DNA from: Escherichia phage RCIP0363
Length of the DNA stretch: 64,000 bases
Sequence record: PV464739.1
Reading direction: 5' to 3' (one strand)
The notes below the pieces were generated by a model. The model was not told the origin of the DNA, searched no databases, and worked only from the letters and a program-made list of their open reading frames with translations. Both the position numbers and the translations under genes were made by a program. Below are positions 58,632 through 61,789 of the stretch, piece by piece (the stretch's first letter is position 1; each line of letters starts with the position of its first letter).

Positions 58632-59105
58632 ATGAGTCAAGATTATGTAGCAATGCCTGAAGACTTTGAAGACCCGCGATTTGCAGAGCATAATCAGGCA
58701 TTATTCGATGAGTTCATTGACCTTGTTATTCAGGGCCATGACATGCGCGCAGCTTTTGCACTAGTATTTGGCATGGAGGTTGCGACCGATAACTACACTG
58801 GCCAGCGAATCCTCTGCACGCAACGCAATCCTTACTACAAGATGCGCTACAAAAAGCGTATGGAAGAGATGCCATTGAAGGAACTGTGGAGTGTAAAGAG
58901 TTCCATCCACAATTTAGTGAAGCTTGTGCGTGATCCAGAAGTCGCGGCATCAGCCAAGCTTAATGCCATTCGTGAACTGAATATCATCTACGGCATCACG
59001 ATGATTGATGAAAACGGCAATAGCAAAATGGGCCGTTCCATGGATGATTTCTACAAGGATTTTGGAGAGGCTGCAAAAGAGGGTGAGCAATTCTCCCGCC
59101 ACTAG
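58632..59105 (+). CDS. Hypothetical protein, possible DNA-binding protein or small terminase subunit
   Basis: 157 aa; ATG at 58632 (track ORF extends upstream in frame); flanked by AATTTGCACTAT copies, one overlapping its start codon. Confidence 0.45.
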   Translation: MSQDYVAMPEDFEDPRFAEHNQALFDEFIDLVIQGHDMRAAFALVFGMEVATDNYTGQRILCTQRNPYYKMRYKKRMEEMPLKELWSVKSSIHNLVKLVRDPEVAASAKLNAIRELNIIYGITMIDENGNSKMGRSMDDFYKDFGEAAKEGEQFSRH

Positions 59106-59219
59106 CCAATTTGCACTATAAAATGGCCCTAGAACACATTTTCTCCACTTCTAGGGCCATCGGTAATACGACGGGGAAGGCTGCAGCCATAAACGCGTTA
59201 GAAAGTGTATTATTATAAG

Positions 59220-59483
59220 TCATCTTTTAGTCACTTTACGTAACAATTTACGACCTTCCGCCGTCCAGTCGAACGACTCCACCAGCAGATTTGCACTATA
59301 ACCTAAGACGATGCGCCCTTTCTCGTTATCGACCCGCCAACAAGTCTCGAATAGCATTCGATTTGCACTATTAACTATCGCCGCAACGCGCGTTGGGTAA
59401 GCGCAATTTGCACTATGATCATAAAGGGATAAGGTGCGACCACTTCCGATGGACAACGTAGCGATGAGAATAAGCGTATTCAT
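59220..59483 (-). CDS. Hypothetical protein (87 aa), uncertain
   Basis: ATG with ggtgg SD; contains three copies of the 12-mer, each encoding S-A-N in frame; may be non-coding. Confidence 0.3.
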   Translation of the reverse strand: MNTLILIATLSIGSGRTLSLYDHSANCAYPTRVAAIVNSANRMLFETCWRVDNEKGRIVLGYSANLLVESFDWTAEGRKLLRKVTKR

Positions 59484-59533
59484 AAGCCACCAATTTGCAC
59501 TATGAAAAGCGACCCCGAAGGGCCGCCATTCGA

Positions 59534-60160
59534 TTAGATGATCTGGAAGGTGTAGGACTTGTTGCCGAACTCGAAGTTCAAGCGTCCAGCTTCTTTAAGC
59601 TTCATGCGGAAGCGAATGTGCTTGCTATCCGGTAAGCCCAGCGCGGCGAACGCTACGCGGACCGATTTGAACTCGCCTACACCCTCGACCATAACGGCGT
59701 TACGGGTGAGACGCTTTTGCGCCACTTCCTTGTTATCCCAACTTTTTGCAATACCTTCGCTATTCGAACGGCGATGGGAAGGAGTTCCATTTTGCACTAC
59801 GCAATTTGCACTATCGTTTAAACCGCTCTTAACGAAGGCTTCATACTCTTCGTCGGTCATCGCGTCGAGTTCTTCCTGCGTCGGCTCGGCCTTTTTAACG
59901 ACCGCACGCGCCTTATGCGTTTTTACATCGCTGGACACTTCCTCGCGCGACTTCGCGTCGGGGATGGGCGATTCGTTGGACGGCTCATCGAGTGCGTTTA
60001 AGGATTCGATTAACGCTATTACGCGAGTCTCGGCGGTCCGGCGGTCCGCAAATTTTTTAATCGGCTTCGAACCGGAATTTGCATTATAAAATGCAACGAG
60101 GTCGGCGGTCTTAGTTGCGATAACGTCGCCGCTAGTCGAGAAACGATTTAAGCTAACCAT
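59534..60160 (-). CDS. Hypothetical protein (208 aa)
   Basis: ATG preceded by taggag SD; balanced protein-like composition; CpG-rich codon usage unlike the rest of the window. Confidence 0.55.
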   Translation of the reverse strand: MVSLNRFSTSGDVIATKTADLVAFYNANSGSKPIKKFADRRTAETRVIALIESLNALDEPSNESPIPDAKSREEVSSDVKTHKARAVVKKAEPTQEELDAMTDEEYEAFVKSGLNDSANCVVQNGTPSHRRSNSEGIAKSWDNKEVAQKRLTRNAVMVEGVGEFKSVRVAFAALGLPDSKHIRFRMKLKEAGRLNFEFGNKSYTFQII

Positions 60161-60240
60161 AATGAACTCCTATTTGTTAGGGCGCTAGGCGCGAAAGAAT
60201 TTTATTAAAGCGCCGCGCACGACGCTCTAAAAATCCTCTC

Positions 60241-60525
60241 TTACGCTTCGACGAGGGAGAAGGTCTCAAATTCTTCTTCGCCCATAACGAGTAAGATGTT
60301 ACCGATTTCGACCGCTTCGAAGAAGTATCCGTTAACGTTTACTTCGAAGGCTTCGCGGTCCGATTCCGGTAGCGCCGCGTAAAGTTTAAAAGCCTCGGCG
60401 ACCGTTACCCCACCCGCCTCGATAGTTTGGTCTACGTTCGCGGCGTAGACTTCGGATAAAATTTGTTTTACGCCGTAGTTCTCGACGATAGCGTTACGAA
60501 TAGAAGAAACGTTAAGAATAGCCAT
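60241..60525 (-). CDS. Small protein, paralog family member A
   Basis: ctaggag SD; paralog of the gene at 61337 (SEVYAANVDQTIEAG / ESVYLSNVDATIESI; VNVNGYFFEAVEIGN / VTINGFVYTITEIGG). Confidence 0.55.
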   Translation of the reverse strand: MAILNVSSIRNAIVENYGVKQILSEVYAANVDQTIEAGGVTVAEAFKLYAALPESDREAFEVNVNGYFFEAVEIGNILLVMGEEEFETFSLVEA

Positions 60526-60529
60526 TTTA

Positions 60530-60749
60530 AACTCCTAGTTGGGAGAGGCGTTAACGACCTATTCGTTAACTCATCCCGTCCCGATATGAGTACATTATAA
60601 TATAGTGTAGAAAAAAGTAAAGCACTTTTTCGATAAAAATGAGATAAATTATTTTATCTTTTTTCTTTACTTCTTCGTACACTCGCGTATACTTGTTTAT
60701 ATCGAGACGGGCGATGGCCCTTCCTTCTACTAGCATCGGGAGTTTTATT
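60530..60749. promoter_or_regulatory. Divergent promoter / leader region with conserved cassette elements
   Basis: Contains cgaaaaagtgctttact in inverted orientation, ttcgtacact, tatact and tttatatcgagacggg boxes, and the hairpin gggcgatggccc. Confidence 0.45.
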
Positions 60750-61052
60750 ATGACCACTTTAATCTCTTCTATCATTACTTACGACGAAGACCGTTTAACC
60801 GTTCGTTCTCTTATCGCCGCCGTTAACGCGGAACTAGAATCCACCATCATTAAGGTCCGCGCGGTCGCTTTCGTCGGCCTTTCCTTCGACGATATTAAGT
60901 ACGCCGAACGTAGCGCCATCCGCTTCGCGAAGACCGACGACGAAGCCGTTACCCTTATCGAGACGGTTACGCCGTGCGGCGAAGCGTTAATTATCGTCGA
61001 GTATATCGACGTAGAAGGCGACAAGGCTTATAAATATTTTATCGCAAAATAA
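60750..61052 (+). CDS. Small protein, cassette member B
   Basis: ATG at 60750 after gggag SD (track ORF begins upstream). Confidence 0.5.
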   Translation: MTTLISSIITYDEDRLTVRSLIAAVNAELESTIIKVRAVAFVGLSFDDIKYAERSAIRFAKTDDEAVTLIETVTPCGEALIIVEYIDVEGDKAYKYFIAK

Positions 61053-61069
61053 CGAAAAAGGAGTAGAAG

Positions 61070-61222
61070 ATGAAAACTATCGAGTTAAGCGCGAAGGCTA
61101 ATAAGTTCGGACGTATTTTATTTTACGTCTTCGAAGATAAGAAGCATCTATACGAATTTAATAAAGCGGAAGACGCCGCCGCTTGGGTCGTCGAACTTGG
61201 GAGACGCGCTTTAAATAAATAG
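61070..61222 (+). CDS. Small hypothetical protein (50 aa)
   Basis: Below the ORF-track cutoff; ATG after aaaaaggag SD. Confidence 0.35.
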   Translation: MKTIELSAKANKFGRILFYVFEDKKHLYEFNKAEDAAAWVVELGRRALNK

Positions 61223-61336
61223 AAAAATAACGAAAAAGTGCTTTACTTATTCGTACACTAAGACTATAATGTTTTATATCGAGAGGGATGAGGTAGCGAA
61301 TAGGTCGCTACCCTCCCGACTAACTAGGAGAATATT
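61223..61336 (+). promoter_or_regulatory. Conserved promoter and structured leader of cassette C
   Basis: cgaaaaagtgctttacttattcgtacact, tataat, tttatatcgaga, hairpin gtagcgaataggtcgctac, then ctaggag SD; ~110 bp nearly identical in reverse complement upstream of gene A. Confidence 0.5.
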
Positions 61337-61627
61337 ATGATCACTTTATCCGCTATCCGTTCCGCTCGCGTCGAAACTTCCGAAAACTCTAACGTATTTG
61401 GCGAAACCTTAGAGAGCGTTTATCTCTCTAACGTCGACGCAACTATCGAGTCTATTTATGAGCCGATCAACTTCCTCGACCTTTACAAGTATCGCGATGA
61501 GGACATCGTATCGTCGCGCGTAACGATCAACGGCTTCGTCTATACGATTACCGAAATCGGCGGCGAATATATCGCGGTCCCGCAACTCGGCGGCGAAGTA
61601 ACTTATTTTAAAATCGTCTCCTTATAA
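61337..61627 (+). CDS. Small protein, paralog family member C
   Basis: taggag SD; paralog of gene A (see above). Confidence 0.55.
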   Translation: MITLSAIRSARVETSENSNVFGETLESVYLSNVDATIESIYEPINFLDLYKYRDEDIVSSRVTINGFVYTITEIGGEYIAVPQLGGEVTYFKIVSL

Positions 61628-61789
61628 TCCCCTTCCGTTACTAATAGGCCGCGCTTAGTCGCGGCTTTTCTTCGTCCCTATCTCGGTGCGCTCCTACGCG
61701 AAAACTCCTTTATCCTTCCCTTCGTCGGCGCATAATCTTCGTCGAGATGCGCCTTAGTTCGCATAACGGGTATTACGTTAAATGGAGAA

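Follow-up and report, generated by a model that had tools for sequence, protein, structure and literature searches.

In a 64-kb window of the genome of Escherichia phage RCIP0363 (PV464739.1), a myophage of E. coli belonging to Wifcevirus, a block of about 2 kb (59817-61990) is nearly free of one base-pair step, CA:TG, and is rich in CG and TA instead. This block, called the island below, lies in the phage's direct terminal repeat (DTR) and carries small genes with predicted strong sigma-70 promoters of their own. Its composition points to a constraint on the double-stranded DNA itself, by which the CA:TG step is removed and CG and TA are put in, and comparison with related phages indicates that at least five related lineages have kept up this constraint and that it is not a relic of horizontal transfer. 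The initial annotation of the region (59100-61700) had described a CpG-rich island of duplicated small-gene cassettes and mentioned neither the exclusion of CA/TG nor the location in the terminal repeat.

Composition of the island

The profiles of CpG, TpA and CA/TG all set the island apart from the rest of the window, as the initial annotation had proposed for its composition. Comparison of the core with 281 background windows of equal length gave 85 CA plus TG against 318.8 ± 14.6 in the background (z = -16), 245 CG against 129 (z = +7.6) and 189 TA against 101 (z = +6.1). In 500-bp bins between 60001 and 62000 the observed/expected ratio (o/e) was 0.26-0.33 for CA/TG (about 1.2 elsewhere), 2.1-2.2 for CpG (about 1.1 in the rest of the window) and 1.1-1.3 for TpA (about 0.65 elsewhere), at the same GC content as in the rest of the window. 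The enrichment of CpG is real, at about 2-fold on average and not several-fold as first described. No other stretch of the 64-kb window has a CA/TG o/e below 0.6. According to the k-mer table, the approximately 232 CA/TG lost are matched about one to one by the CG (+116) plus TA (+86) gained; CAG/CTG occurs twice where 73 are expected, a 36-fold depletion in Wifcevirus, and CTAG is 10-fold enriched. The right compositional border is sharp. The left one is gradual, lies inside a conserved gene for a protein of 208 amino acids (aa) and passes into a graded zone with a synonymous avoidance index of 0.59-0.62, and the same gradient was found at all Wifcevirus loci. The tail of the island contains two 25-nt direct repeats (61792-61816 and 61844-61868) of the sequence TCGCGTAAGTC[C/G]TTGTTTTATA[T/A]AG, where the record of phage Mansfield annotates an open reading frame (ORF) of 39 aa on the minus strand.

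Codon choice, amino-acid usage and strand symmetry

The constraint acts on nucleotides, not on proteins. With the long ORFs of the same phage as background, a third-position pyrimidine followed by G was C in 121 of 134 cases in the island genes (90%) versus 1065 of 2430 (44%) in the background (p = 4e-28), and one followed by A was T in 51 of 67 versus 585 of 1589 cases (p = 2e-10), that is, C in 24% versus 63%. In Serratia phage SMP, which carries a related island, the third-position pyrimidine is C in 98% of the cases before G and in 10% before A. Within codons, the ratio of NCA to NCG was 6:40 in the island genes and 811:569 in the background, and that of NTA to NTG 29:1 and 216:549, respectively. 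The leucine codons CTG and TTG are never used, GTG accounts for 1 of 43 valine codons, and the island proteins are poor in Gln, His, Cys, Trp and internal Met. Even the -35 hexamers of the island promoters, TTTACT, correspond to TTGACA minus its TG and CA. An explanation by tRNA supply or codon preference was rejected, since no tRNA genes were found in the phage and the effect crosses codon boundaries.

For genes in either orientation from six lineages, 101 CA and 97 TG were counted on the sense strand, without strand asymmetry. This equal depletion argues for a double-stranded CA:TG step rather than an RNA motif as the target of the constraint. The synonymous avoidance index was 0.85-0.96 in genes A, B and C and in the 50-aa ORF (Table 1). 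In the three thirds of the 208-aa gene it came to 0.78, 0.73 and 0.59 in turn, in the 87-aa ORF to 0.62, and in the small terminase gene (TerS), which belongs to the repeat as well, to 0.30. It follows that the effect is regional and graded; it tracks the predicted early transcription units and not the repeat as such.

Conservation in other phage lineages

The flagged region and its flanks are 90-97% identical to 28 phage records, all of them Wifcevirus myophages of E. coli or Shigella (among them AV128, WFC, WFH, Mansfield, ECML-117, FEC19 and BASEL Bas98-101). The island is present in all 28, with a CA/TG density of 33-49 per kb in all Wifcevirus isolates, and in addition in Myosmarvirus, in Pantoea phage Kyle and in the uncultured phages L074 and L076. 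The latter two were found with a profile of proteins A and C, which recovered one more member from each, and the island was present at both loci. The island of phage SMP (Myosmarvirus) spans 1.7 kb, with CpG o/e reaching 2.7 and CA/TG o/e at 0.10-0.37. It encodes two acidic proteins of about 100 aa and a paralogue of the 208-aa family, and contains a promoter (TTTACT-17-TATAAT) and the hairpin CGGGCGAAUAGGUCGCCCG. The exclusion is most complete in L074, in which two entire genes, of 312 and 378 bp, are free of CA and TG apart from the start ATG and 59 of 59 and 73 of 73 synonymous choice sites avoid CA/TG; its coding DNA has 3 CA/TG per kb versus 19-30 per kb in its intergenic promoter regions.

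The family of the 208-aa protein occurs throughout the PB1-like phages (about 37% identity in Pbunavirus, 42% in SMP) and allowed a wider comparison. At 79 IMG/VR loci with a protein of this family, the minimum 500-bp CA/TG o/e was distributed bimodally, with 0.10-0.27 in Wifcevirus, Myosmarvirus and Kyle and at least 0.56 in all others, including Pbunavirus; the island is absent from about 65 other loci of the family. In SMP (locus L012) the family has two paralogues, one of 345 aa (6605-7639) beside the large terminase gene and of normal composition, the other of 167 aa (11167-11670) inside the island.

Between lineages the island proteins are 30-50% identical. At this distance synonymous sites are saturated and a composition passively inherited from a donor would have decayed, which argues that the signature is actively maintained.

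Location in the terminal repeat

The window holds a single collapsed copy of the DTR. The sequence at 58272 is the start of the records of WFC, WFH, SP13 and Mansfield, and the length of the DTR in Wifcevirus records is 3673-3784 bp, as derived from records with both physical ends (WFC, WFH and SP13; both ends compared in WFC and WFH) and from a PhageTerm feature in Mansfield. This agrees with the published value of about 3.7 kb (PMC6563267). The flagged region occupies the right two-thirds of the DTR, with TerS (58632-59105) in the left part. The island ends approximately 130 bp short of the right end of the DTR and is consequently separated from the DNA end by 1.5 kb in the left copy and by 130 bp in the right copy. 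In MyoSmar and MTx the island likewise lies inside a terminal repeat, of 3.56 kb (with a PhageTerm feature in MyoSmar).

On the left the island is bordered and entered by an array of ATTTGCACTAT-type motifs, located around and downstream of TerS and antisense to the 87-aa and 208-aa genes. None was found elsewhere in the window; the core of the motif occurs seven times in L074 (4169-5123) and twice in Kyle. The array may represent recognition sites of the terminase or an injection-stop signal. Chi sites also stand beside the island, six in 1.3 kb in L074, nine in 1.7 kb in Kyle, four to five in Myosmarvirus, two in L076 and one in this window, with clusters at 4096-5333 in L074, 7027-8744 in locus L085, 2107-2447 in locus L071 and 12947-14125 in L012. 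In the relatives they flank the island where the 208-family gene has its 3' end and are always oriented against RecBCD entering from that end of the repeat. These phages thus appear to expect attack by RecBCD on the repeat, and the oriented arrays support the view of the repeat as exposed, vulnerable DNA, by which the CA/TG rule is not explained.

Table 1. Predicted features of the terminal repeat and the CA/TG-depleted island (positions in the window)
Feature	Position	Strand	Remarks
Direct terminal repeat (DTR), ~3.85 kb	58272 to about 62120		Single collapsed copy in the window
ATTTGCACTAT-type motifs, 11 (eight exact)	58514..60089	+ (all)	Border and enter the island
Graded zone, partial CA/TG depletion	59106..59816		ATTTGCACTAT motifs overlaid, each adding 3 CA/TG
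87-aa putative ORF	59220..59483	-	Annotated as coding in WFC, Mansfield and Bas98; perhaps the P_A operon's distal gene
Chi site GCTGGTGG	59279..59286	-	Oriented to halt RecBCD coming from the left DTR end ahead of the island
208-aa gene, phrog_4730	59534..60160	-	Function not assigned; 5' half inside the core island
Core island, CA/TG-excluded, CG- and TA-enriched	59817..61990		From 100-bp and 500-bp profiles, k-mer table and background windows
Gene A, 94 aa, pI 4.05, A/C family	60241..60525	-	Slot varies among isolates
A leader hairpin GUUAACGA-AUAGG-UCGUUAAC	60550..60570	-	8-bp stem, loop AUAGG
P_A, TTTACT-16-TATAAT	60621→60594	-	Divergent from P_B; reads gene A, then the 208-aa gene, perhaps the 87-aa ORF
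P_B, TTTACT-16-TATACT	60666-60693	+	Reads gene B, then the 50-aa ORF
Gene B, 100 aa, pI 4.55	60750..61052	+	Most conserved small gene
50-aa basic ORF	61070..61222	+	Downstream of gene B; only in some isolates
P_C, TTTACT-17-TATAAT	61242-61270	+	A/T-rich upstream region; reads gene C, then the terminator
C leader hairpin GGUAGCGA-AUAGG-UCGCUACC	61292..61312	+	8-bp stem, loop AUAGG
Gene C, 96 aa, pI 4.23, A/C family	61337..61627	+	AlphaFold model, pLDDT 86.6
Intrinsic terminator after gene C	61646..61677	+	Annotated as terminator in Mansfield, WFC and WFH
Non-coding island tail	61678..61990		CA/TG still about 3-fold depleted; two 25-nt direct repeats

Promoters and leaders

Three near-identical predicted strong sigma-70 promoters are located within 680 bp (Table 1). 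The promoter and leader cassette noted earlier for genes A and C was confirmed, including the hairpins and the Shine-Dalgarno sequence CTAGGAG, and so was the related promoter of gene B. The cassette consists, in this order, of an A/T-rich upstream region, a CTTTACT -35 region, a spacer of 16-17 nt, TATAAT (TATACT for gene B), TTATATCGRGA as conserved initial transcribed sequence, the leader hairpin and finally the Shine-Dalgarno sequence. The upstream regions of A and C are in addition linked by inverted repeats, with arms of 55 nt at 75% complementarity and of 33 nt at 88%. In L074, CTTTACTTCTTCGTACACT is identical to that of P_B; SMP has two promoters of the TTTACT type and Kyle four (TTTACT-N16/17-TATAAT). 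Where gene A is missing, in ECML-117 and likewise in RCIP0319, the P_A cassette and its leader directly precede the 208-aa gene. The sole EcoKI site of the repeat (AACGAAAAAGTGC, 61229-61241) falls in the conserved region just upstream of the -35 hexamer of P_C.

When the leader hairpins of A, C and the Myosmarvirus type were compared, the outer stem showed compensatory double changes at three pairs and one G·U, a covariation drawn from a small number of independent stem types. The core CGAAUAGGUCG, comprising the inner CGA/UCG pairs and the AUAGG loop, is invariant, and a variant hairpin, CGGAAUAGACCG, occurs in Kyle. Folding energies were modestly better than those of shuffled sequences (z = -1.3 to -2.2). 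No Rfam 15 family matched between 58000 and 62500, where the sole hit was a chance-level mcrA outside the island (E = 0.68). The complete hairpin and the signature together were confined, among IMG/VR contigs, to Wifcevirus and Myosmarvirus. A scan of IMG/VR for TATAAT-N(8-32)-CGAATAGGTCG returned 56 stretches, and those outside these two genera were discarded as chance matches with neither extended stem nor island. Most likely the hairpin serves for recognition by a protein or stabilises the 5' end. The tolerated G·U and the invariant loop favour an RNA element bound by a protein, and a role as 5' stabiliser is the simplest alternative.

Genes and products

Genes A and C were confirmed as paralogues at the coordinates first proposed: BLASTP aligned 80 aa at 35% identity (E = 3e-6), and when 1.8 billion proteins were searched with a joint profile, both came back. 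With an identity of about 30-35%, they are true but old paralogues, which contradicts the recent duplication that had been suggested. The similarity of their upstream regions is explained by a conserved regulatory cassette, which also occurs in other genera with different flanks. Gene B has no detectable relation to A or C, including by hhalign; its homologues comprise 125 aa in L074 and 122 aa in L076. In the slot of gene A, WFC, WFH and Bas98 carry an unrelated acidic protein of 104 aa, and a 69-aa ORF after gene C is, like the 50-aa ORF, variably present among isolates.

All island products of about 100 aa are acidic, with an isoelectric point (pI) of 4.0-4.6. In protein searches the homologues of A/C and B occurred only in these island-bearing phages. 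No Pfam hit reached its cut-off, no homologue of A1, A2 or Dmp of phage T5 was found, and PHROGs returned only families of unknown function. For the 208-aa protein in particular, there was no Pfam match and nothing significant in a profile search of the PDB. Structure prediction for the A/C family with AlphaFold gave a pLDDT (predicted local distance difference test) of 54 with an input of 8 sequences, and 86.6 after two distant members had been added; the resulting model has no fold neighbour in the PDB. The model of protein C matches, in BFVD, a 114-aa protein of Myosmarvirus phage TropicalSun, which by its length is presumably an island protein. Neither sequence nor fold similarity to Ocr or ArdA was found for the small island proteins. 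Profile hits of A/C to giant Ig-repeat proteins (Big_13 and similar) were discarded as repeated beta-strand patterns. For the small, fast-evolving, acidic products, a part in taking over the host or in countering defence systems is most likely. Such a role, already suggested in the initial annotation, is plausible in view of the predicted strong promoters and the terminal repeat, and the A/C family, protein B and the 208-aa family may be considered candidate anti-defence proteins, with an A/C fold that, as modelled, is not seen in the PDB.

A hidden thymidine hypermodification was also considered and rejected: the 'thymidylate synthase' of the phage proved to be ThyX and the 'kinase' a HAD-type PNKP phosphatase domain, and together with an SDR they make up no such pathway.

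Restriction phenotype and site content

Wifcevirus isolates of the BASEL collection resist EcoKI, EcoCFT_I, EcoRI, EcoRV and EcoCFT_II despite the presence of sites and without known genome protection, and of six systems only EcoP1_I affects them, their sensitivity to it being very high (PMC11990801). Their genomes contain 36-38 EcoRI and 6-8 EcoRV sites (palindromes counted in both orientations), 92-93 EcoCFT_II and 82-89 EcoP1_I sites. In the island there are five EcoP1I sites (AGACC, both orientations; 2.5 expected), one EcoKI site and no EcoRI, EcoRV or EcoAI-type site. CACAG, which is possibly the EcoCFT_II site to judge from the site counts, has 85 occurrences in the window, a number near that of the EcoCFT_II sites, and none in the island. 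Such a site content would fit the pattern expected if the island were exposed before protection sets in, as in T5 and T7. The ris mutants of T5 are reportedly a precedent for an early-injected region that decides restriction sensitivity. Another such precedent is reported in PMC12455610, and T7/T3 and Murciavirus, like T5 with its ris mutants, are counted among phages whose early-injected DNA is purged of restriction sites. Altogether, 332 of 617 distinct REBASE recognition sequences are missing from the island, versus 253 ± 12 in control segments.

Possible causes of the CA/TG exclusion

We propose that the island would be an immediate-early gene module in the DTR, read by the host RNA polymerase as one leftward unit (gene A, the 208-aa gene and perhaps the 87-aa ORF) and as rightward units formed by gene B with the 50-aa ORF and by gene C with the terminator. 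This stretch would have to work as naked, unprotected DNA before protective functions of the phage exist, which is the weakest step of the proposal; the reasoning follows that for the first-step-transfer DNA of T5 and the leading end of T7. DNA without CA:TG steps would then escape a DNA-targeting activity for which such a step is required, be it a nuclease or restriction function of the host or an activity by which the phage itself destroys host DNA. To the proposal as a whole, in which immediate-early transcription depends on the host polymerase and the DNA encoding these acidic, fast-evolving proteins has to avoid an activity dependent on CA:TG, we give about even credence; evasion of a CA:TG-requiring activity as the cause of the exclusion is put forward with low confidence. 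It seems rather unlikely that the first-acting DNA is written without CA:TG because an activity requiring this step attacks all other DNA in the first minutes, so that only the CA/TG-free block survives for transcription.

Several points weigh against evasion of such an activity by an early module. We know of no nuclease or modification specific for CA:TG, none was found in this analysis, and the ThyX, HAD-phosphatase and SDR genes of the phage gave no hint of base modification. The first-step-transfer region of T5 and the early region of T7 show no CA/TG exclusion, so that leading DNA has managed without it. The immediate-early timing is suggested solely by the type and position of the promoters, and the Myosmarvirus island abuts the opposite side of the repeat compared with Wifcevirus. 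With regard to restriction, fewer than one EcoRI, EcoRV and type I site each are expected in 2.2 kb, so their absence is not significant alone, and the recognition sequences in REBASE hold GA/TC and AG/CT more often than CA/TG. Finally, within Wifcevirus, substitutions creating CA/TG occur at 0.095 versus 0.115 per opportunity, a mild deficit only, and 84 variants create CA/TG and 29 destroy it; although this test, polarised by majority rule, is crude, the weak signal counts against strong present-day selection on CA/TG.

Instead of selection, a regional mutational bias at the repeat or at DNA ends could convert CA/TG to CG or TA, with the genes tolerating it; candidate processes are biased mismatch repair linked to recombination, error-prone fill-in and deamination of DNA that is transiently single-stranded. 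Single-step transitions would give the observed near equality of CA/TG loss and CG plus TA gain, the depletion declines gradually along the 208-aa gene, and the weakly constrained small genes are fully converted and the conserved gene partly. CA/TG-destroying transitions have the highest rate per opportunity within Wifcevirus (0.163), with creating ones near neutral, and the oriented Chi arrays suggest processing of this end by RecBCD and RecA. The ratio of destroying to creating rates, however, is 1.7 and thus far under the approximately 5 needed for a 4-fold depletion at equilibrium. TerS in the same repeat is normal (index 0.30), the island borders track transcription units and not repeat ends, the start ATGs and a few promoter CA/TGs are retained, and two transitions (A→G and C→T) would be needed at one step on both strands, a process of which no example is known; we consider this cause doubtful. 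A constraint on RNA, by which early mRNAs must lack CA and UG in order to escape an endoribonuclease at the time of takeover or to remove internal AUG, GUG and UUG starts and UGA, with the DNA signature as a by-product, would account for the rough match of the island with the early transcription units, for its fading along the long leftward operon, for the difference in L074 between coding DNA (3 CA/TG per kb) and intergenic promoter regions (19-30), and for UG in particular, which is present in all bacterial start codons. It is made quite improbable by the equal loss of CA and UG from the sense strand (101 versus 97), which would require two unrelated specificities, by the 3-fold depletion that persists in approximately 300 bp of non-coding DNA past the terminator, and by the -35 hexamers, which are not transcribed and also avoid TG and CA; to our knowledge, moreover, no E. 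coli RNase has a CA/UG specificity.

Cumulative avoidance of restriction sites, in which many systems purge short motifs and the net result looks like the exclusion of a dinucleotide, is very unlikely in our view. The excess of missing REBASE sequences (332 of 617 versus 253 ± 12) and the fit of the BASEL restriction phenotypes to the island's site content are in its favour, as is the 36-fold depletion in Wifcevirus of CAG/CTG, common in type III and IIG sites; yet GA/TC and AG/CT are part of more recognition sequences and removal of AG/CT would cost no amino acid, many 6-bp sites (SalI, HpaI, BstBI, XbaI and DraI) remain in the island, the exclusion in L074 is total in every sequence context, and in SMP CAG is no more depleted than other CA triplets. 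The horizontal acquisition assumed in the initial annotation, by which the composition of the block would be that of a donor genome, could draw on the sharp right border, on the accessory genes that come and go and on the 10-fold enrichment of CTAG, which is normally avoided in E. coli and its phages. It is extremely improbable: no Wifcevirus lacks the block, which also recurs in Myosmarvirus, Kyle, L074 and L076 with proteins only 30-50% identical, takes in a core gene family of the PB1-like phages and has a gradual left border within this conserved gene. Neither mobility genes, tRNA genes, an att site or flanking repeats nor a donor were found, homologues of A/C and B being confined to these phages, and the context-dependent choice of synonymous codons argues for maintenance in situ rather than for the composition of a donor.

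Comparison with known phage systems

Early-gene modules in terminal repeats are already known; the near-complete removal of one base-pair step appears to be new as far as the literature was searched, in which no description of a CA/TG-excluded early module was found. A close counterpart is the first-step-transfer region of T5, also a gene block in a long direct terminal repeat with host-type promoters and small proteins mostly of unknown function. Both phages resist restriction despite sites, and a region of repeated motifs borders the block in both (the injection stop signal in T5, the ATTTGCACTAT array here). The T5 region, for which a two-step DNA entry is known, differs in its size (10 kb versus 2 kb) and in its genes A1, A2 and Dmp, which have no homologues here. 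Its CA/TG content is normal and it has a modest CpG excess only. In the T5 terminal repeat (locus L077, 1-14000) CpG o/e is mostly 1.3-1.5 (0.97-1.11 at 6-8 kb) versus 0.5-0.9 just outside, a weaker compositional difference that may be related to the island signature. The leading end of T7 and T3 (promoters A1-A3 and gene 0.3, Ocr) shares tandem strong sigma-70 promoters near a genome end and small, very acidic products, which would be the first ones made here too; in T7 and T3 the site content of the leading DNA decides restriction sensitivity, as it may do here. The island differs in its divergent promoters and in proteins without likeness to Ocr, and the T7 early region is ordinary in its dinucleotides. 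The host-takeover module of Bacillus phage SPO1 likewise packs many small genes with their own strong early promoters into a terminal repeat; its proteins are unrelated, its host is another one, and no compositional exclusion is reported for it.

As in the known avoidance of restriction sites and palindromes by phages, selection here would act on short DNA words independently of the protein, with the difference that known avoidance concerns specific sites of 4-8 bp, usually genome-wide, and the island one dinucleotide step in every context over only 2 kb. The leader hairpins resemble 5' stem-loops such as ompA-type stabilisers and lambda boxB in being short and lying within approximately 15-20 nt of the predicted start, and in combining a loop that does not vary with a stem that covaries; the AUAGG loop and its closing CGA/UCG pairs are unlike boxB.

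The exclusion works through codon boundaries, amino-acid usage and promoter hexamers alike and persists across genera. As the constraint is strong, simple and easily manipulated through synonymous codons, genetics should be able to find its cause, with a new host activity on incoming DNA, a fast lytic phage sparing its own first DNA or a new end-linked mutational process as possible outcomes. If evasion by CA:TG-free DNA were true, it would reveal a nuclease or modification of near-dinucleotide specificity, explain how pre-early DNA escapes the destruction of host DNA, an open question since T5, and account for the broad restriction resistance of Wifcevirus. The module would also offer a testable explanation of the resistance to five of six restriction systems, EcoP1_I excepted.

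Additional sequence features

Three exact copies of ATACGGATGATACG at 58203-58393 span the left end of the DTR (58272), and two exact copies of AAATTTGCAGTACACTA (62143-62159 and 62240-62256), similar to the ATTTGCACTAT motif, lie just beyond its right end. Two overlapping sigma-70-like promoters (TTGAAC-17-TATAAT and TTGAAT-17-TATAAT; 58551-58597, plus strand) read into TerS from about 280-325 bp inside the left genome end, an unusual place of transcription for a packaging gene. The left terminus of MyoSmar (L071, 1-130) is C/A-rich (CCACCACAATCCACCTCCAACACC...), the opposite of the island that starts right after it, and CCACAA-type repeats recur there at 3756-3883. Elsewhere in the window, an AT-rich patch upstream of the head maturation protease gene (6501-7000; GC 0.35, CpG o/e 1.74, TpA o/e 1.14) includes a 63-bp gap without CA/TG (6720-6783) and bears a faint likeness to the island signature, and at 44001-44500 GpC o/e is unusually high (2.34) and the AT skew strongly negative (-0.33).

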